A stretch of 64,000 nucleotides of DNA from Patescibacteria group bacterium (lineage in GTDB: Bacteria > Patescibacteriota > Patescibacteriia > SBBC01 > CAIJZX01). The stretch's first letter is position 1. Each line of letters opens with the position of its first letter. The notes under the pieces were generated by a model. It was not told the origin of the DNA. It saw only the letters and a list, made by a program, of their open reading frames with translations, and did not search any database. Location: the NCBI GenBank assembly GCA_038065275.1, contig JBBTRH010000007.1, positions 2,873 through 66,872 of the forward strand, written 5' to 3'. Positions 4,885 through 35,851 of this stretch are shown here, in pieces. The position numbers were made by a program, and so were the translations under genes.

Positions 4885-4993
4885 TCCCGTTAGAAATGAA
4901 CGAAGATGAACTATTGGTAAAAGCGAGGTTGTATTTACTTCCGCTACATTTTTCAAAAATAACGTTTTATTCATTTCTAACGGGACTAACGGG
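4885..4993. repeat. CCCGTTAGA hairpin element, copy 1
   Basis: Left arm TCCCGTTAGAAATGAA (4885-4900) and right arm TTCATTTCTAACGGGA (4970-4985), followed by a second CTAACGGG that abuts the folD ATG. The spacer is AT-rich. Confidence 0.7.
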
Positions 4994-5797
4994 ATGAGCG
5001 CGATCAAGCTCGACGGCCGCCGCGCGGCTGATCGAATGTTGGTACAATTAAAGAAAAAAATTCGGCGCACGCGGGAACCGATCACGTTAGCCACGATTCT
5101 CGTCGGTTCGCGTTATGATTCATCCCTCTACGTCCGCCTCAAGCGCCGCGCGGCCACTCGCGTCGGGATTAAAACCGAAGCGCATCATCTTCCGGCAACG
5201 ACAAAACAAGCGTCCTTGACGCGCCTGATTCGCGCGCTCAACCACCGCAAAAACATCAGCGGCATTCTACTACAACTCCCTTTGCCACCGCGCCTCGATG
5301 CTGACGCGGCCATCCGCGTCATCGATCCCCGCAAAGATGTTGACGGTTTTCACCCGCGCAACGCCGTAGTTGTTCCCCCGCCGGTAGCCGCCGTCTTGCG
5401 TCTTATCAATCTCGGCCAACCGCCGCGAGGTTCGTTCGCGGCCATCGTCGCCCAGCCGTCAGTTTTTACCGCCCGACTGGCGACCGAACTTGCCCGCCAT
5501 GGTTTTGTTCCGGCTGTCGTTGAACCGCACCGTAATCTGAACCTGGTCACGACCAAAGCCGACATTGTCGTCACCGCGCTTGGTCAGGGCGCGCGCTTGA
5601 CGGCCCGCGACGTCAAGCGTGGCGCGATCATCGTCGATGTCGGAATACGTCGGCACGGTAAAAAAACCATCGGCGATGTTCATCCCTCAGCCTGGAAAAA
5701 AGCTAAGGCCATCAGTCCCGTACCCGGCGGAGTTGGGCCGTTGACGGTCTCCTGCGTCCTCGAAAATACTTATCAGCTGGCCGAACATCAGTCGTGA
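4994..5797 (+). CDS. folD: Bifunctional methylenetetrahydrofolate dehydrogenase/cyclohydrolase
   Basis: KDVDGFHP motif; follows glyA, giving a one-carbon metabolism pair. Confidence 0.9.
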   Translation: MSAIKLDGRRAADRMLVQLKKKIRRTREPITLATILVGSRYDSSLYVRLKRRAATRVGIKTEAHHLPATTKQASLTRLIRALNHRKNISGILLQLPLPPRLDADAAIRVIDPRKDVDGFHPRNAVVVPPPVAAVLRLINLGQPPRGSFAAIVAQPSVFTARLATELARHGFVPAVVEPHRNLNLVTTKADIVVTALGQGARLTARDVKRGAIIVDVGIRRHGKKTIGDVHPSAWKKAKAISPVPGGVGPLTVSCVLENTYQLAEHQS

Positions 5798-7212: not shown

Positions 7213-8292
7213 ATGTCATTTTCTGTTGGCATCGTTGGTCTGCCCAACGTCGGAAAATCATCGCTGTTTCAAGTGCTGACGAAAAAACAGGTCGACACTT
7301 CGAATTACCCCTTCGCCACCATTGATCCGAACGTCGGCGTCGTGGCCGTGCCGGACCCGCGGCTCGAAGTGTTGACAAAGATGGAAAAATCGGCCAAGAC
7401 GATCGCCACCGCCATCGAATTCGTCGACATCGCCGGCTTGGTCAAAGACGCGCATAAGGGCGAGGGTTTGGGCAATCAATTCCTGGCGAACATTCGCGAA
7501 GTCGATGCTATCACTGAAGTGGTGCGGGCTTTTGATGATCCGAATGTAATCCATGTCGCCGGCAAGATAGACCCCGCGTCTGACACGGCGACGATCGACA
7601 TCGAGCTGGCCATGGCCGACCTAAGCACCATCGCGAAAAGGCTTGACACGTTGACCAAACAAAAAAAGGCCGGATTGGACAAACAACAAACATCGGAACT
7701 GGCGTTGATCGAACGGGTCCACGCTCATCTTAGCGATGGAAAACCGGTTCGTGTTTTGCCTTTGACCGATGAAGAGCGCTCGGAACTGAAATCTCTCAAC
7801 TTGTTGACTATTAAACCGCTGATCTACATCCTCAACGTCAGTGAAAACCAAGTAGCCGCGTCCAGAGCGGAAACGTATGGCTTACCGCCGGAGCAAACTG
7901 TCGTCATCGCCGTGAAAGTCGAGCAGGAATTAGCCGACTTGAGTCCGGCTGATGCCGCCGCGTACCTCAAAGAACTCGGATTATCCGCTTCCGGCCTTGA
8001 CCGGCTGATCCAAACTGCGTACCGAACGCTCGGCCTGGTGACGTTCCTCACCACCGGCCCGGATGAGACACGGGCTTGGACAGTTCCGTCCGGCACGAAA
8101 GCGCCCCAAGCCGCCGCGGTTATCCACACTGATTTCGAACGGCATTTCATCCGCGCCGAAGTGGTAAGTTACCCTGATCTTGTCGCCGCTGGATCATGGG
8201 AGATGGCAAAAACGTCGGGGAAACTCAGAATCGAGGGAAAAACATATGTCATTCGGGATGGTGATGTCGTGTTTTTCCGAGTGAGTGTTTGA
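7213..8292 (+). CDS. ychF: Ribosome-binding ATPase YchF (Obg-like GTPase family)
   Basis: [20 protein letters not shown]1 motif; TGS domain at the C-terminus. Start at Met16 of ORF 7168..8292. Confidence 0.9.
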
Positions 8293-13621: not shown

Positions 13622-13733
13622 AGTATTGTTCCTTCCGCCGCTCGTCTCCCCACGAATCGGGGGCAGTCGGGGCTTAATAACTATAGGTTAACCGAAGAAA
13701 TACCGAATGTCAAGACTGTCCCTGTGGATAACT

Positions 13734-14003: not shown

Positions 14004-14702
14004 CTAACTATTCGTTGTGCTCGCCGGTGCCACAGCCGATTCGACAAGAATATTCCTGATTACCGTCCGCGGTCGGCTGTGTTTCTTAATGGCCGAAATT
14101 TTCAGCGCATTGAGTCCGATATGAAGGTCGATCGATTCATTAAACCGACCGTCACCGGAAGTCTGGACGTCCTGGTCGTTGATGGTCACCGTGGCGTTCG
14201 GGTCGGTCGTACCGCTGATGATCAAAGTCACGGCCGAGGTTGAAATATCCGTCGCCGGTTGCGTGACGGTCAACCGCGGGGGCAGGAAATTCCGCACAGC
14301 TTGGGTGCCGAGGTAGGTGACGGCTATGACCACGATGATGCCGGAGACGATGAAGCGAAGATGGCGCCGCACCCAGGGAAACTCCGTCGATGCTCGCGGG
14401 GTGAGGAGCGGCCGCGCGGTCGGTCCGGTCTTGGCCACCACGGCATATTCTTGCTCGAAGATCCCGACCGCCGTTTCCACGTCCGTCTCCAGCGCTTCCG
14501 CATACCGGCGGACGAACTGCCGAGCATAGACCAGCCCGGGCAAGTCACGATAACGCGATTCCTCGACGGCCGTGAGGTATTTCGAGGTGACGTGAATCCG
14601 CCGTCCGACGTCTTCAACTGACCATCCGGTTTCAGTCCGCAGGGCCCGTAGGCGGTCACCGAGCGTCGCCCCGGCCGTGAGCGGCCGCTTGGTGAACGTC
14701 AT
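14004..14702 (-). CDS. RodZ-like helix-turn-helix membrane protein
   Basis: N-terminal XRE-type HTH (LGDRLRALRTETGWSVEDVGRRIHVTSKYLTAVE), a single TM segment, then an extracytoplasmic domain. Confidence 0.6.
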   Translation of the reverse strand: MTFTKRPLTAGATLGDRLRALRTETGWSVEDVGRRIHVTSKYLTAVEESRYRDLPGLVYARQFVRRYAEALETDVETAVGIFEQEYAVVAKTGPTARPLLTPRASTEFPWVRRHLRFIVSGIIVVIAVTYLGTQAVRNFLPPRLTVTQPATDISTSAVTLIISGTTDPNATVTINDQDVQTSGDGRFNESIDLHIGLNALKISAIKKHSRPRTVIRNILVESAVAPASTTNS

Positions 14703-14775
14703 CCCGTTAGAGCGTTATATTGAAGCATTATTATTCTCATTACGGTCTGATCCGACGATGGCCGCTCTAACGGGA
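14703..14775. repeat. CCCGTTAGA hairpin element, copy 3
   Basis: CCCGTTAGAGCG (14703-14714) and CGCTCTAACGGGA (14763-14775). The element fills the whole 73-bp gap between the ftsK stop and the ATG of the RodZ-like gene. Confidence 0.75.
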
Positions 14776-17049: not shown

Positions 17050-17130
17050 ATCCCGTTAGAAGCTATCTGAAAAAAAAGTGAATTGTTTGTTCATACGTGA
17101 TAAGCTTGTTATTACGGCTTCCAACGGGAC
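17050..17130. repeat. CCCGTTAGA hairpin element, copy 4
   Basis: CCCGTTAGAAGC (17052-17063) and GCTTCCAACGGG (17117-17128). It starts 1 bp upstream of the ftsK ATG. Confidence 0.7.
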
Positions 17131-25282: not shown

Positions 25283-25394
25283 GTTAGCCCCGTTAGAGGT
25301 GATAGCGAAAACAAGGTGGAGATTAGTTGTCGTTATCCACAGCAATGTGGCGTATTAAAAAAAGTAATTACATTCGCCTCTAACGGGGTTAGCC
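25283..25394. repeat. CCCGTTAGA hairpin element, copy 5
   Basis: GTTAGCCCCGTTAGAGG (25283-25299) and CCTCTAACGGGGTTAGCC (25377-25394). A candidate promoter TTGTCA-N17-TAATGT (25256-25284) abuts its left arm. Confidence 0.7.
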
Positions 25395-25598
25395 ATCCTT
25401 TTTCGTCATGGTGTACAGCAACAAAAAACTATCCCCAATTATATCCAGAAGGTATCCACAGGAGGTAATTTCATAAATACACCTAATAATAACCGGCGAA
25501 AGTTGGTCCTGAGGAGCTATCGCTGGGGCACACCAATGGAGGCGGTGATCAGCGCCTCCCCATTGCCGACCCCCATTTCAATGCGTTAAGGTGTAGAC

Positions 25599-28961: not shown

Positions 28962-29142
28962 ACCTCCCCCGTCAAATAATAATGACAACCTTTGTTACAC
29001 AGAATAAACTACGCAATTAACAAAATCGTTGCCCCCCAACGCACCCCTCCTTCGTAAGGAGGGGTGTTTAAGACAAAACCGAAGACGTTTTTAACGATGC
29101 TGGTAATAGAAAGCACGAATGTTACTATTTGACGGGGGAGGT
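28962..29142. mobile_element. MITE-like element, copy B
   Basis: TIRs ACCTCCCCCGTCAAATA and TATTTGACGGGGGAGGT. Internal hairpin CGCACCCCTCCTTCGTAAGGAGGGGTG. It sits exactly between the recQ stop and the NUDIX gene stop. Confidence 0.7.
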
Positions 29143-29681
29143 CAACGTCGCACTTCCAGAACCCCTAATGCCATCAACCCCCGATACGCCGTTTCGCCGT
29201 CGGTCATTTTTCCTTCGGCCAGCATTGTGAAAAACGTTTTCATTGACACGGTTACGACTTCGATGGCTTCGTATTCGTCATTCTTCGGTTTTTGCGCCGC
29301 TTTCGCATTGGTGAATAAAAAATGGTGGCGCCAGCCGTCTGACCATCCATCATTAGATGTTCTGCCTAATGAGCGGCTATGTCCACGATATCCGGTTTCT
29401 TCAAGAACTTCACGAATCACCGCTTGCCTCGGTGTCTCGCGGCGGTCGATCCTTCCGCCTGGAAGTTCAAACATTACTCGTTCGACGCCGGGGCGGAATT
29501 GTTTCGCAATCACTACCTTGTTGTCAGGCGTAATAACCAGAGCGCAAACAATGTTCGGCCTATTGATTGTATAAAAGTCTCCCACTGCGCCATTCGGCAA
29601 CCGGAAACGCTTTTTTCGAAGTGACCGGAAGCGATTGATTTTGATAACGCGGTCGCTGATTTTTTCCCAGGCCAATCTCAT
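29142..29681 (-). CDS. NUDIX hydrolase
   Basis: Nudix box …RQAVIREVLEETGY…. Confidence 0.8.
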   Translation of the reverse strand: MRLAWEKISDRVIKINRFRSLRKKRFRLPNGAVGDFYTINRPNIVCALVITPDNKVVIAKQFRPGVERVMFELPGGRIDRRETPRQAVIREVLEETGYRGHSRSLGRTSNDGWSDGWRHHFLFTNAKAAQKPKNDEYEAIEVVTVSMKTFFTMLAEGKMTDGETAYRGLMALGVLEVRR

Positions 29682-31003
29682 GACCCGTTTGACAGCATCT
29701 TCCGCACCGTCTCGACATCACTCCACTCCATTTTCTGTCCCCTGACCATCATCGACGTCTCCGAACCCATGCCGGTAATTGCAATCACATCCCCCGGTTG
29801 AGCGAGTTTTATCGCGTGATGTATGGCTTCTTTGCGATCCAGGATAATTTCCGCCTTCCCCTGTTGATCAACGGGCAGACCGTCATAAATCGTAGCGCAA
29901 ATCTGTTGCGGATCTTCATCATACGGGTCGTCCGTAGTTAAAATAATCTTGGCACAGTATCGCGCGGCAATCTTCCCCAGTTCCGGGCGTTTCCAGGCGT
30001 CCCGTCCGCCGCCGGCCGCACCGAAGACAGCAATGATGCGCTTCGCACCGTCTGATTTCAGCGATTGATAGAATTGTTCAAGCGCGGCGGGTGTCAGCGC
30101 ATAATCAACCACTACTCGCCACGGTCGGCCGGTGGCTATTTCTTCGCTTCTTCCCGGCACCGCCTGTGCGCTAGCCAGCCCCTTAACGATCGCTTCCCAC
30201 TCCAGCCCCAAGGCGCGGCCGACGGCGATGGCTTGCAACGCGTTACGGACATTGTATTCGCCGGACAACGGTAGCGTGAAATCGCGGCCGTCAACGGTGA
30301 ACATCATCCCGTCCGCCGTCGGCCGCGCGCCGCTCCCCGCAATGACCGTCATTTTCCCTTCGGCATCCGCTATCGTTCGGTGATGACTTAACGTTGTTCC
30401 ATAGTGCTTTTCGGCCCAAAATTTCAGGTAATAGTCGTGTGACGCATCGTCGAGATTAACGACGGTGACTTTGGGAATGGCGGCGCCAAACAAGTGCTTG
30501 TCGCCGCTACGGATAATCGAGGTGAAGAGCAGGCCTTTAGCTTGCCGATAGGCTTCGAACGAACCGTGTGTCTTGATGTGCTCGGGCGTAAGATTGGTGA
30601 TCACCGCCACGTCGAAGTCGACGTCGGTATGGCGGTACTGAACCAGCCCTTCCGACGACGCCTCAACGACCGCGTAGCGACAGCCAGCCTGGACCATTCG
30701 TCGCAGGAGCCGCTGTAGTTGAAACGGGTCGGGCATGGTCAGGTGCGATTCGTTGAGCCAGCGCTGTTCGCCAATCTGAAACACCGCCGACGTCGACAAC
30801 CCGACCGGCGCGCCGCTCGCGCCGAGCACATCGGCGATCAGCGACGCCGTAGTGGTTTTGCCGTCAGTCCCGGTCACGCCAACCACAATTATATGGCGCG
30901 ACGGCCGTCCGTACCGCCAGCCAGCCAGAAGCGCCAGCAAGTGATGGTACTGCCGGCGGATAGTCGGCGGAGCTAGGCGCTTTAGTGTTCCCAGCGCGGG
31001 CAT
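29678..31003 (-). CDS. Mur ligase family protein (MurE-like UDP-MurNAc-tripeptide synthetase)
   Basis: VVGVTGTDGKTTT ATP-binding motif and the C-terminal TTDDPYDEDP (DNPR-EDP-like) motif. It overlaps the NUDIX gene by 4 bp. Confidence 0.75.
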   Translation of the reverse strand: MPALGTLKRLAPPTIRRQYHHLLALLAGWRYGRPSRHIIVVGVTGTDGKTTTASLIADVLGASGAPVGLSTSAVFQIGEQRWLNESHLTMPDPFQLQRLLRRMVQAGCRYAVVEASSEGLVQYRHTDVDFDVAVITNLTPEHIKTHGSFEAYRQAKGLLFTSIIRSGDKHLFGAAIPKVTVVNLDDASHDYYLKFWAEKHYGTTLSHHRTIADAEGKMTVIAGSGARPTADGMMFTVDGRDFTLPLSGEYNVRNALQAIAVGRALGLEWEAIVKGLASAQAVPGRSEEIATGRPWRVVVDYALTPAALEQFYQSLKSDGAKRIIAVFGAAGGGRDAWKRPELGKIAARYCAKIILTTDDPYDEDPQQICATIYDGLPVDQQGKAEIILDRKEAIHHAIKLAQPGDVIAITGMGSETSMMVRGQKMEWSDVETVRKMLSNGS

Positions 31004-31008
31004 AGGAA

Positions 31009-31263
31009 TTAAGCGAACGATTCCGGGGTCAACTCCTGATCGTCGCTCAAGCGCACCGTGAACGAAAAATCCTTGTTACGCACGAGATCGTAACGCCGGC
31101 CCTGGAAAATTAATGTGGTGATGCCGTAACGCTTGGCCGTGTAGAACAATCCTTCGACCACGTCGTGATCGGCATTCTTGAGGTAGACGATGGCGTCTTT
31201 ATCTCCCTCAACTTGGTGGACGTTGATCAGCTCGCGGCGCGGTTTATCATTCGGCAACGGCAT
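31009..31263 (-). CDS. Small hypothetical protein, paralog 4 of 4
   Basis: 84 aa (LINVHQVEGDKDAIVYLKNADHDVVEGLFYTAKRYG...). Confidence 0.55.
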   Translation of the reverse strand: MPLPNDKPRRELINVHQVEGDKDAIVYLKNADHDVVEGLFYTAKRYGITTLIFQGRRYDLVRNKDFSFTVRLSDDQELTPESFA

Positions 31264-31312
31264 AGGTCGCTAGTCTAGCAAACATGGCGTCGCCTGGCCA
31301 GCGCGGGGATTA

Positions 31313-31552
31313 TCAGATCACCAGGTCGTCGTCCGCGGCGATAATCGTGTAACTGTTGTCGCGATCATGATTAATAACATACGCTGTACCGCGAACATGA
31401 AACGTACTCTGTCCGCGCCGCTTGGCTCGGTAGAGAAGCTCTTCCGTCCGCAGGTGACTGCCCTCCTTGAGGTAATCTATGGCGTCCTGATCGCCGTGGA
31501 GACGATGGACGACGATGTATTCTTCGTCAGTCTGGCGGTAGGGTTTTTTCAT
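31313..31552 (-). CDS. Small hypothetical protein, paralog 3 of 4
   Basis: 79 aa (YIVVHRLHGDQDAIDYLKEGSH...), clearly similar to paralog 4. Confidence 0.55.
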   Translation of the reverse strand: MKKPYRQTDEEYIVVHRLHGDQDAIDYLKEGSHLRTEELLYRAKRRGQSTFHVRGTAYVINHDRDNSYTIIAADDDLVI

Positions 31553-31554
31553 GC

Positions 31555-31785
31555 TTAGAGAATCCCCTGGACGAACGAGCCCGGCTCAAGCGTGAAAGTG
31601 TGGTCGGGATGGCGGCGAAGGATGCGTTCCTGTCCGTCGAGAATGAGGCGGGATTGCCCATGTTCCTGGGCCTCAGCGAACAGTCGGTTAAGGTAGGCGG
31701 CCGATTGCCGGCGGAGAATTAGGGCCAGCTCCGGATCGCCGATGACGATGTGCCCCTGAATGTTCGTGCGTTTAAAACCAGCCAT
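31555..31785 (-). CDS. Small hypothetical protein, paralog 2 of 4
   Basis: 76 aa; overlaps the previous ORF by 14 bp; same pattern. Confidence 0.5.
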   Translation of the reverse strand: MAGFKRTNIQGHIVIGDPELALILRRQSAAYLNRLFAEAQEHGQSRLILDGQERILRRHPDHTFTLEPGSFVQGIL

Positions 31786-32017
31786 GGGAGACGTTGGTCG
31801 CTACGACGACGAATGCGCCGTTTTCGCCGTCTACCAAGCTGAACTTGCGGTGGTCCTCGTCCTCGAAGGCGACTTCTTTTTGTGCCTCAACTTGCTTGAA
31901 CAACTCCAGCGCCTCGTCTTGGCTGAGTTTGTAGGCTAGATGCTTAACCCCGAAAAACGACCGCTCGTCGTCGCAGGTGACGCGATGACCGTGGACGGTC
32001 AGCTGGTGGTTGCTCAT
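31772..32017 (-). CDS. Small hypothetical protein, paralog 1 of 4
   Basis: 81 aa, first gene of an overlapping four-gene array, sharing the pattern hVH..G...A..YLK....L....EL...A...G...F. Confidence 0.5.
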   Translation of the reverse strand: MSNHQLTVHGHRVTCDDERSFFGVKHLAYKLSQDEALELFKQVEAQKEVAFEDEDHRKFSLVDGENGAFVVVATNVSHGWF

Positions 32018-32080
32018 ATGGATCGTATGAGATGATGAAGCCTACCGCCATCGTAGCACTATCGCAAAAAAATGCCAGTT

Positions 32081-32219
32081 AAAAAGGAGAGACACACTGG
32101 TGAGAGTGTGTCGTGGTAAGTAGGGGGGTTGATTGAGGTGGCCGTGGGGCGAAGGTTTTTTGGGAGCTTGGTGCTTCCGGAAACCATTTCGCTCGAGAGC
32201 TACCTCATTTCCTACTTAC
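32081..32219 (-). ncRNA. Candidate small structured RNA (~139 nt), class unknown
   Basis: A near-consensus sigma70 promoter lies just upstream on the minus strand. The transcript begins GUAAGUAGG, and a 9-bp terminal helix GUAAGUAGG/CCUACUUAC encloses the body. It ends with GACACACU-CUCACC-AGUGUGUC plus UCUCCUUUUU. No convincing ORF. Confidence 0.5.
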
Positions 32220-32225
32220 AGCTGA

Positions 32226-32254
32226 ATTATAGACCTATACGGTTTCTACGTCAA
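32226..32254 (-). promoter_or_regulatory. Sigma70-type promoter TTGACG-N17-TATAAT for the candidate sRNA
   Basis: On the minus strand, TTGACG (32254-32249), a 17-nt spacer, then TATAAT (32231-32226). Confidence 0.55.
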
Positions 32255-32316
32255 GAGGTATTTTTCTTAGGAAAAACCAGGTGTTTTCTACCGCCGTGTA
32301 TCCAAAAAAAGGTTAT

Positions 32317-32346
32317 CCACAAAAAGACCTCGGAATTTCTTCCGAG
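32317..32346 (-). terminator. Intrinsic terminator of the exonuclease gene
   Basis: Minus strand: CCTCGGAA-GAAA-TTCCGAGG followed by TCTTTTTGT. Confidence 0.65.
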
Positions 32347-32358
32347 GCGCAAGCACTA

Positions 32359-32964
32359 TCATGCCGATTGACGACGGGCGTTCAACCGGGCGTCGATCTG
32401 AACTTCGTATCGAGCGCCGGCCAGCCCGCGGTGCGGTTTGGCTTCTTCACCCAGTCCGAGGTACGCGCCGACGGACGAGAGTGACAACTTGGTGATGCGG
32501 CCGGCCAGGAAATCCGGCCGCAGGGCTTCGCTGGCCTTGGTCATCAGGCAGTGCCAGTGGTAGTCGCCCCGCCATTCCCGACCGTAGCGGTAGAAATAGT
32601 CGGCCAGCCAGCGGAACTCGAAGCTGACGTTATACGCCCAGGGCACACATCCGGCGCAGAACGCGTTGAGCTGATCAAGCGCCTGCTCCGCCAGAATCGC
32701 GTCAACCCACTCGGCGAAGGTGAAACCGTTGTAGCGATGGTACGACAGCTCCTCTTCCGACCTGCCGAACGGATTGGCGACCCCGAACATGAGGTTGAGT
32801 TCGGCCAGCGCGTCGCCGCTGACCGGATCGACTTTCACCAGTCCGGCTTCACAGACCTCGCCCCCTTCGGCCAGGCTGTCGCCGGTGGTTTCCAGATCAA
32901 TAAAGACCCTTGGCAAAGCGATGAAATCGGCCGTGCCGCTGACACGGTTGGGGCGCATACTCAT
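32359..32964 (-). CDS. DEDDh-family 3'-5' exonuclease (DnaQ-like)
   Basis: Exo I motif VFIDLETTG. The C-terminal H-x4-D-like region is HRGLAGARYE. Confidence 0.75.
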   Translation of the reverse strand: MSMRPNRVSGTADFIALPRVFIDLETTGDSLAEGGEVCEAGLVKVDPVSGDALAELNLMFGVANPFGRSEEELSYHRYNGFTFAEWVDAILAEQALDQLNAFCAGCVPWAYNVSFEFRWLADYFYRYGREWRGDYHWHCLMTKASEALRPDFLAGRITKLSLSSVGAYLGLGEEAKPHRGLAGARYEVQIDARLNARRQSA

Positions 32965-34622: not shown

Positions 34623-34697
34623 TGGTGCCCCCCAGAGGAATCGAACCTCTATCGCGAGATCCGGAATCTCGTGTCCTATCCGTTGAACGAGGGAGGC
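34623..34697 (-). tRNA. tRNA-Arg(CCG)
   Basis: The minus strand folds as a cloverleaf. Acceptor GCCUCCC/GGGGGGC (one G-U). D-arm GUUC/GGAC. Anticodon stem CGAGA/UCUCG with loop UUCCGGA, giving anticodon CCG. T-arm AGAGG-UUCGAUU-CCUCU. Discriminator A and an encoded CCA. 75 nt. Confidence 0.85.
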
Positions 34698-34843: not shown

Positions 34844-35851
34844 CTATTCATCAACCCCGCCCCGCATGCGCTTGGCCAACCGGTATGCCTGGTACCACTG
34901 TGGTTGCAGAATGGCGTTCAGTGACAACGGAAAAACGATCTGCCGTCCGCTAAACCCGCGTTTAAATCGTGTGATACCGGCCCATTTATGCGTCGGTTCA
35001 TCATCCGGCGCTATCCCCCACAGGTCGTATTCTTTCACTCCACGTTGGTGAGCCTGCTTGATCGTCTCCCACTGCAACAGATATGGCACCATGGCCTCTT
35101 TTGTGCTGTCATCGGAGCCACCATGCAGATAGGTAGCCGTCCGGCCGTGCCAGATGATCATATGCGCGGATCGAACAGCACCGTTATATTCTCCAAGAAT
35201 GAGTTCGGCCATGCCCGCCGTTTGTAGCACGGTGAACAGTTGGCGGTAGTATTGATCCTGATGCAATCGGATGCCCTGCCGCTGAGCAGTTTGATGCATT
35301 AAACCGAGAAACGTTTCCAGGTCTTGAAGCTCAGTACTCCATCGCACCGTCACCTTTTTCTTTTCCGCCAAACGAATATTGTAACGGGTTTTCGGATGCA
35401 TCGAGGCCAGTAGATCATCAGGCGATTGGGCCGTATCAATGACCAGGGTTTGTTGCGGTTGTAACGTTGTGCCCAATGTATATTTTCCGGCTAACTGCGT
35501 CACGTCATCGGCAAAATGATAAATTCCCGGATCAACTTTGACATACATAGCATTCTCTTTTTCTCCCAGACTCCGCATCGCAACGAACAGTGTTCGAGCG
35601 ACTTCCGACCTATCAGCCAGCGGGCCACGCGGACAGTATAAGTACGTTTTTCTGAGCAGTAGCTCGTGTCCGATCACTAACGCCGAACCGACCAACCGGT
35701 TTTCATCGAAAGCTCCCAGCCACCATATTGGCCGTCCGAGTACATGCTGAAACTCACCCCAAGTCCAGGATTGTAAAAATGGTTGCAACGGCTGGCGTCC
35801 GACCAGATCGTGTAGTGCCTCTTTGTCGTCAAGCGTACGGACGGTGACCAT
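34844..35851 (-). CDS. FemAB-family peptidyltransferase (peptidoglycan interpeptide-bridge formation)
   Basis: 335 aa with two GNAT-like halves and FemAB-like composition (…HGGSDDSTKEAMVPYLLQWETI…). Confidence 0.65.
   Translation of the reverse strand: MVTVRTLDDKEALHDLVGRQPLQPFLQSWTWGEFQHVLGRPIWWLGAFDENRLVGSALVIGHELLLRKTYLYCPRGPLADRSEVARTLFVAMRSLGEKENAMYVKVDPGIYHFADDVTQLAGKYTLGTTLQPQQTLVIDTAQSPDDLLASMHPKTRYNIRLAEKKKVTVRWSTELQDLETFLGLMHQTAQRQGIRLHQDQYYRQLFTVLQTAGMAELILGEYNGAVRSAHMIIWHGRTATYLHGGSDDSTKEAMVPYLLQWETIKQAHQRGVKEYDLWGIAPDDEPTHKWAGITRFKRGFSGRQIVFPLSLNAILQPQWYQAYRLAKRMRGGVDE

Follow-up and report, generated by a model that had tools for sequence, protein, structure and literature searches.

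An intergenic region of a Candidatus Kerfeldbacteria (Patescibacteria/CPR) chromosome very probably carries the gene of a real, independently transcribed and structured non-coding RNA of a new family, judging from its sequence and from that of related loci. The family is new and of a familiar kind, the bacterial small RNA. It matches no described RNA family and has so far been seen only in Candidatus Kerfeldbacteria, a lineage of ultra-small bacteria from groundwater. As a full explanation we propose that the product of this independent gene is a trans-acting protein-binding scaffold or regulator linked to a cell-wall operon, an account that we consider plausible and a little short of probable. 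All positions refer to the window, which is the whole stretch of DNA that was analysed (64 kb).

Overall architecture of the RNA gene

The predicted transcript runs from 32219 to 32081 on the minus strand and comprises 139 nt. We infer the start of transcription, the 3′ end and the abundance of the RNA from its sequence. The start is placed at the G at 32219, seven nucleotides past the -10 element and the first base of GUAAGUAGG. The gene and its product are made up of the following features.

32226-32254, minus strand: sigma-70-type promoter TTGACG-N17-TATAAT, with the -35 element at 32254-32249, a 17-nt spacer and the -10 element at 32231-32226
32116-32219, minus strand: rod domain, consisting of P1 (GUAAGUAGG, 32219-32211, paired with CCUACUUAC, 32124-32116) followed by P2 (with the AGUAG strand), P3, P4 and P5
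32162-32178, minus strand: apical hairpin GGAAGC-ACCAA-GCUCCC with a C/A-rich loop (helix 4; 98% paired, 4/5 pairs compensatory)
32125-32133, minus strand: C/A-rich bulge AUCAACCCC between P2 and P1 on the 3′ strand, single-stranded in each of the individual folds
32081-32112, minus strand: intrinsic terminator, consisting of an 8-bp hairpin GACACACU/AGUGUGUC (32112-32091) and the U/C-rich tract UCUCCUUUUU (32090-32081)

The length of 139 nt and the pairing of the 5′ and 3′ ends, both part of the original prediction, are correct, and the strong hairpin with a U-run that it placed at the 3′ end is found as the 8-bp hairpin and UCUCCUUUUU. The rod is an unbranched structure of ~105 nt and 45 bp capped by the apical hairpin, and the minimum free energy (MFE) and centroid structures agree. 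The RNA (folded from 32220 to 32081) has an MFE of -47.8 kcal/mol, compared with -24.8 ± 3.2 kcal/mol for 200 dinucleotide shuffles (z = -7.1), none of which folds as well. Across homologs the bulge between P2 and P1 measures 5-13 nt, and the alignment shows it to be conserved in composition but not in sequence. The U tract of the terminator is interrupted by a C, suggesting that termination may be partial. A hairpin followed by a U-rich tract is present 3′ of the rod in 12/12 short-type homologs examined, but the hairpins of different loci have unrelated sequences.

Along the rod, (A)GUAG recurs two or three times together with its partner CUAC (32211-32219 and 32197-32203, minus strand; three times in locus L005), so that register-shifted alternative pairings are possible. 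These repeats could represent an internal duplication or a repeated protein-binding site.

Promoter and upstream box

The minus-strand TTGACG-N17-TATAAT promoter that had been read from the sequence by eye is present at its expected location. It matches 11/12 consensus positions and is the top-scoring promoter between 27 and 38 kb in a promoter scan. The pattern TTGACR-N17-TATAMT occurs a single time in 64 kb, with 0 occurrences expected from 100 shuffles. The promoter is kept in 20/20 RNA-bearing loci with upstream sequence. Seventeen of these fit the regular expression TTGAC[AG]-N17-TA[TG]A[ACT]T, and the remaining three (L012, L017 and L031) show the one-base -10 variants TATGAT, TATTAT or TATGCT. 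In most related loci the promoter takes the form TTGAC[AG]-N17-TATACT. Farther upstream lies one more element.

32312-32321, minus strand: upstream box TGTGGATAAC, whose reverse complement TTATCCACA is the DnaA-box consensus

An A/T-rich stretch separates the TGTGGATAAC box from the -35 element. The window holds four exact copies of the box, while only ~0.1 is expected for an exact 10-mer (an estimate). The listed box positions are 32312-32321 (minus), 25332-25341 (minus), 25451-25460 (minus), 13723-13732 (plus) and 8119-8128 (minus), to which loci L006-L031 are added. In 15 RNA-bearing loci the box, in the form TGTGGA[TA]AAC, is located 46-50 or 59-68 nt 5′ of the -35 element, the spacing changing in steps of about one helical turn. 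Two copies also lie 5′ of the rpoB promoter (TTGACA-N17-TATTAT, ~25239-25211). The box is probably a regulator site of the RNA promoter, as a candidate element common to strong housekeeping promoters.

Related loci and size variants

Related loci were fetched through the first small protein of the downstream operon from species-representative genomes, JGI metagenomes and Logan/ENA contigs, and more were added through homologs of the exonuclease encoded upstream. The first small protein gave 42 sequences with a mean column identity of 81%. An RNA-like unit lies directly 5′ of the operon in 22/25 distinct loci (the window counted), a figure biased towards association with the operon because the loci were gathered through the downstream gene. 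The recurring unit consists of the promoter, a transcript that begins at a helix, a terminator and an extended -10 element TGnTAnnnT before the start codon. Loci L016, L024 and L030 have no such RNA, and there the operon is found behind a large surface-protein gene. BLASTN detects just four related RNAs, at 71-78% identity, which indicates that the RNA sequence evolves fast.

The RNAs fall into three size classes: 13 short ones of the window type, three medium ones (190-240 nt) and six long ones (about 300-390 nt). Only their position, promoter and shared motifs assign the nine medium and long variants to the family, and the covariance model does not detect them. Long variants have extra hairpins within the first domain as well as a second, multi-hairpin domain of ~110 nt, seen at ~2250-2380 in L006, ~2310-2420 in L013, 1-100 in L020 and ~2740-2860 in L031. 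This second domain has four hairpins and the conserved elements GAUGAUC...GAUCGC, UGGUC-UCU-GACCA and GCUGAUC...GAUCAA. It has no match in Rfam, is absent from the window (nhmmer search) and may be a separate, undescribed RNA motif.

Conserved secondary structure and covariation

Of the checks proposed with the original prediction, folding with homologous loci and a covariance search against Rfam were run. When 10 homologs are folded singly, each forms the same unbranched rod with z-scores from -2.7 to -7.0. The conserved layout starts with P1, continues with an internal loop of unequal strands (5′ side 3-5 nt, 3′ side 9-13 C/A-rich nt) and P2 to P5, and ends in the apical hairpin. P2 has AGUAG on its 5′ strand. 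The apical hairpin has 5-7 bp of the form GRAAGC/GCUYYC and a C/A-rich loop of 5-8 nt.

RNAalifold predicted no structure on a plain MAFFT alignment of 12 homologs, whose columns were not in register, and a model-guided alignment took its place. The first covariance model was made of the window sequence and its MFE structure alone, and it found 8 homologs on the correct strand. The second-round model (R2), made of seven sequences, then collected all twelve short-type RNAs and later the one of L033, 13 in all, at the expected spot and strand. The same model found no second copy of the RNA in the window.

The 10-sequence alignment was fitted to the model, so that its figures are somewhat inflated, an effect mitigated by the independent single-sequence folds with the same helices: 89.8% of the cells are paired, compared with 35-52% after a shift of the 3′ partners by 1-3 columns, and compensatory changes on both sides occur in 26/33 pairs. 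None of 500 column shuffles matches the observed covariation measures. In helix 4 the pairs change between GC and AU, between GC, AU and UA, and between CG and AU. This covariation places GGAA in a stem and not in a GNRA tetraloop. The G-U pairs in several columns, together with the orientation of promoter and terminator, fix the strand of the RNA.

Genomic context

The window is part of the chromosome of its Candidatus Kerfeldbacteria host and encodes rpoB, rpoC, ftsK, recQ and polA. A phage origin was rejected, since these genes are present and there are 0 DNA matches among 50,697 phage records. Exact copies of the exonuclease protein are found on groundwater metagenome contigs, including Hainich, where the intergenic region is identical as well. 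Relatives of the downstream gene occur in metagenome-assembled genomes (MAGs) labelled Candidatus Kerfeldbacteria or Patescibacteria. The local gene order is ruvA, femX-like, tRNA-Arg(CCG), NUDIX, glmU-like nucleotidyltransferase, DEDD exonuclease, the RNA, four small paralogs, murE and NUDIX. The features that flank the RNA gene are the following.

32359-32964, minus strand: upstream gene, a 201-aa ORF for a DEDD/RNase T-type exonuclease (weak Pfam, NCBIfam and PADLOC hits)
32327-32348, minus strand: terminator hairpin of the exonuclease gene, a 9-bp stem followed by CTTTTTGTGG
32050-32058, minus strand: extended -10 promoter of the downstream operon, TGCTACGAT (TGCTAGGAT-like), of the form TGnTAnnnT between the terminator and the ATG
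29142-32017, minus strand: downstream operon of four small paralogs (81, 76, 79 and 84 aa), an N-terminally truncated murE (441 aa) and NUDIX, with conserved gene order

The RNA had been described as lying between a DEDDh exonuclease gene and a four-paralog operon. This placement agrees with the weak exonuclease hits on one side and, on the other, with the four tandem ORFs of ~80 aa, which are distant paralogs (13-26% identical). The four paralogs stand as described, while the context of their operon is amended: it belongs to a CPR bacterial chromosome, and its 'Mur ligase' is MurE without the N-terminal domain. The terminator of the exonuclease gene at 32327-32348 makes the RNA gene a separate transcription unit on its 5′ side. 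As a partner of the exonuclease the RNA was rejected, because an 822-kb genome has the exonuclease 140 kb away with no adjacent RNA while the RNA remains beside the operon. A retron, a bridge RNA and a guide RNA were rejected likewise; the operon and its near neighbours contain no reverse transcriptase or recombinase, and the sole nuclease is the DEDD exonuclease.

The Mur ligase of the operon (29678-31263, minus strand) is identified as MurE by NCBIfam TIGR01085, with 347 bits against a cut-off of 257. Its alignment starts at about residue 86 of E. coli MurE, so that the protein lacks the N-terminal UDP-binding domain, which one of the four small paralogs encoded directly upstream might replace. 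For the 81-aa protein, the AlphaFold model (pLDDT 81) gave a best Foldseek E-value of 0.4, with no significant fold match, no recognisable RNA-binding fold and no match to MurE. A profile search of PDB sequences with the same protein returned noise only. In the window and in other loci the operon leader measures 26-36 nt, and in about half of these its first bases form a GUAGG motif that resembles the 5′ end of the small RNA.

Known RNA families and coding potential

At the gathering score, Rfam 15 matches only tRNA in the window. At E ≤ 10, the 451 nt around the RNA give chance matches to unrelated families, with neither SRP nor 6S among them, and the 18 homologous loci give tRNAs only. ARAGORN reports no tRNA or tmRNA at the site of the RNA. 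The original prediction had found no hallmarks of SRP, 6S, tmRNA or RNase P, and these searches agree with it: no family matches the RNA in the window or in the homologous loci. A tRNA-like end (AAGUAGG/CCUACUU followed by ACCA) was rejected, since the 3′ CCA is not conserved among homologs. In the literature searched, we found no earlier description of this RNA family.

That the RNA is instead a small-protein gene or a dual-function RNA, or only a chance intergenic hairpin, is hardly credible. A single ORF does exist inside it, ATG-initiated and 42 aa long (32059-32187), but it crosses the terminator, and open frames are expected in a G-poor, C-rich stretch. Among 12 homologs no ORF is conserved: frame and start differ, or the ORF is absent (L008 and L029), in line with the original remark that no convincing ORF is present. 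A chance hairpin is excluded by the covariation in combination with the conservation of the promoter.

Proposed function and alternative explanations

A near-consensus sigma-70 promoter with a phased TGTGGATAAC box should set the start of transcription at the base that opens helix P1. The RNA folds into P1, the asymmetric loop, P2 to P5 and the apical hairpin, forming the unbranched rod. The intrinsic terminator ends the RNA, and the downstream operon starts from its own promoter. In the mechanism that we propose, the RNA would act in trans, not as a riboswitch or leader, and the rod would most likely serve as a rigid scaffold bound by protein. The rod has purine strands conserved in sequence (AGUAG twice, AAUGG and CCGRAAGC) and displays G-free, C/A-rich single strands in the apical loop, in the 9-13-nt 3′ bulge and in the linker to the terminator. 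The conserved purine strands and the displayed C/A-rich strands point to what is probably a protein-binding regulatory RNA, either sequestering or scaffolding. Its near-constant place before the small-protein/murE operon suggests that the partner or target belongs to that cell-wall precursor module. Several observations support the scaffold. Sequence conservation in the alignment is concentrated in the paired purine strands, while the unpaired tracts keep composition only; relatives add hairpins or a second domain to the same core in a modular pattern; and selection acts on every helix of the 45-bp rod. The scarcity of SD-like sites and the chance-level complementarity within the window, both given below, likewise favour a scaffold over seed pairing. 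Among the mechanisms we rank the trans-acting, protein-binding RNA first, as a tentative choice, and any particular partner is rated lower. It is rather unlikely that the rod serves, as RNA subunit or regulator, in a lineage-specific ribonucleoprotein (RNP) tied to CPR peptidoglycan-precursor synthesis, such as one bound by the four paralogs that precede the truncated MurE, or else that it is a housekeeping RNA peculiar to the CPR and regulated jointly with rpoBC by way of the phased DnaA-box-like element.

Ranked second is a base-pairing (antisense) sRNA, which would use the G-free C/A-rich loop, bulge and linker as seeds for G-rich mRNA sites and repress or activate its targets; we regard this as possible and somewhat doubtful. 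Unpaired C-rich tracts are the classical signature of base-pairing sRNAs such as RoxS/RsaE and 6C and of the C-rich-loop sRNAs of Gram-positive bacteria, and sRNAs are often encoded beside their targets. Like RoxS/RsaE and the actinobacterial 6C RNA, the RNA is encoded by a stand-alone gene of ~100-140 nt that has a sigma-70 promoter and ends in an intrinsic terminator, and several of its C-rich stretches are unpaired; all three are found in bacteria without known Hfq dependence. Such sRNAs typically have a size, a 5′ stem and a terminator like those of this RNA, and the composition of the three unpaired C-rich stretches is conserved in all homologs, including the medium variants (CCAACACCC-type loops). 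However, the RNA has no sequence or covariance-model similarity to RoxS/RsaE or 6C, and its C/A tracts all belong to a single long rod with covariation, not to hairpin loops of their own. These tracts vary in sequence and length whereas the paired strands are better conserved, and selection on all helices of the rod would be needless for a seed-type sRNA. As targets, SD-like motifs are located upstream of only 8/36 genes of the window, the host using few SD sequences in contrast to the hosts of RoxS/RsaE and 6C, and exact 10-mer complementarity in 64 kb is at chance (18 matches versus an estimated 16 or so). A duplexfold scan of neighbouring start regions for targets yielded uninterpretable long-loop duplexes and was discarded. 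A divergent housekeeping RNA, either a reduced SRP (4.5S) RNA or a 6S-like decoy of RNA polymerase that the Rfam models miss in this lineage, is very unlikely. Small SRP RNA (4.5S, RF00169) is also a hairpin of ~100 nt whose ends pair, and both RNAs have a strong promoter of the constitutive type and a GGAAGCA-like string. The string CCGGAAGCACCAAGC resembles the apex of 4.5S RNA, and the stretch GGUUUCCGGAAGCACCAAGC is superficially like GGUCCGGAAGGAAGCAGCCAAGGC, which E. coli 4.5S carries. With 6S RNA (RF00013 and relatives) it shares the rod shape and, probably, abundance, and its promoter is as strong as that of rpoBC and has the TGTGGATAAC box in common with it. Yet no SRP or 6S model scores at E ≤ 10, here or in the 18 homologous loci. 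SRP RNA was rejected because covariation puts GGAA in a 5-6-bp stem (GRAAGC/GCUYYC) with a C/A-rich loop of 5-8 nt, and there is no GNRA tetraloop, no symmetric AGCA/GGA loop and none of the other symmetric or asymmetric loop motifs of RF00169. For 6S RNA the rod is too short (~105 nt compared with 150-200 nt), and the one large loop that it contains bulges on a single side (3-5 nt facing 9-13 nt) where 6S has a two-sided central bubble. In addition, three related loci have no RNA at this position.

A cis-acting leader or attenuator of the small-protein/murE operon would make different use of the same elements: the strong promoter would drive the operon, and a protein (e.g. a small paralog) or a ligand would set the read-through. 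The order of promoter, structured RNA, intrinsic terminator and operon is indeed that of Gram-positive attenuators and other terminator-type leaders (riboswitches, r-protein leaders, PyrR/TRAP-type attenuators), in 22/25 loci the RNA directly precedes the operon, and the C-interrupted U tract may allow partial termination. Nevertheless we consider this explanation unlikely. The operon has a conserved promoter of its own, TGnTAnnnT between terminator and ATG, in 22/24 loci checked, including the RNA-less L016, L024 and L030. In 8 loci only 6-8 nt separate this extended -10 element from the ATG, implying that the mRNA is leaderless. Three loci have the operon with its promoter and lack the RNA, and in one of them the first protein is 78% identical. 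By inspection of the window RNA and its folds, no segment pairs with either arm of the terminator as an alternative antiterminator. The rod is conserved from locus to locus, whereas the terminators have unrelated sequences, and known aptamers do not look like an unbranched rod in which few unpaired bases are invariant. Among the circumstances that would speak against a separate RNA, the original prediction had named a region that is the read-through 5′ UTR of the downstream operon, and the operon's own extended -10 promoter makes this unlikely too. On every point tested, the original reading, an unannotated small RNA with a promoter and an intrinsic terminator of its own, is supported.

Whichever way it acts, the RNA has retained its consensus promoter, the phased upstream box and the covarying rod of 45 bp in a genome of ~1 Mb with space at a premium, suggesting that its role is likely to be important. 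It adjoins essential cell-wall genes (femX-like, glmU-like and murE). The CPR/Patescibacteria account for a large part of bacterial diversity; nearly all of them are uncultivated, and their genomes are tiny. We found no description of lineage-specific regulatory RNAs of this group in the literature searched. The covariance model and the alignment provide a handle for finding the RNA in metagenomes and metatranscriptomes and for testing binders. If true, the RNP or housekeeping reading would add a new functional class to the bacterial RNAs, and would do so in organisms in which RNA biology has hardly been explored.

Other features of the window

The tRNA gene in the neighbourhood of the RNA is the sole match of ARAGORN and is also found by Rfam.

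34623-34697, minus strand: tRNA-Arg(CCG)

It is located directly downstream of the gene for a FemX-like aminoacyl-tRNA-dependent peptidyltransferase (34844-35851, minus strand), and this pairing recurs in most related loci. The adjacency may be coincidental synteny, or it may provide a dedicated tRNA supply for the synthesis of cell-wall cross-bridges.

The 8-mer CTAACGGG is present in 15 copies in the window, compared with 1.6 expected, for example at 14703-14710 (minus), 17052-17059 (minus), 4977-4993 (plus) and 25289-25296 (minus). It often stops 0-3 nt short of start codons, as in ftsK and the ORFs 14004-14702 and 4994-5797, and it also precedes ATGs in L017 and L024. This 8-mer may be a lineage-specific translation-initiation or 5′-UTR signal.
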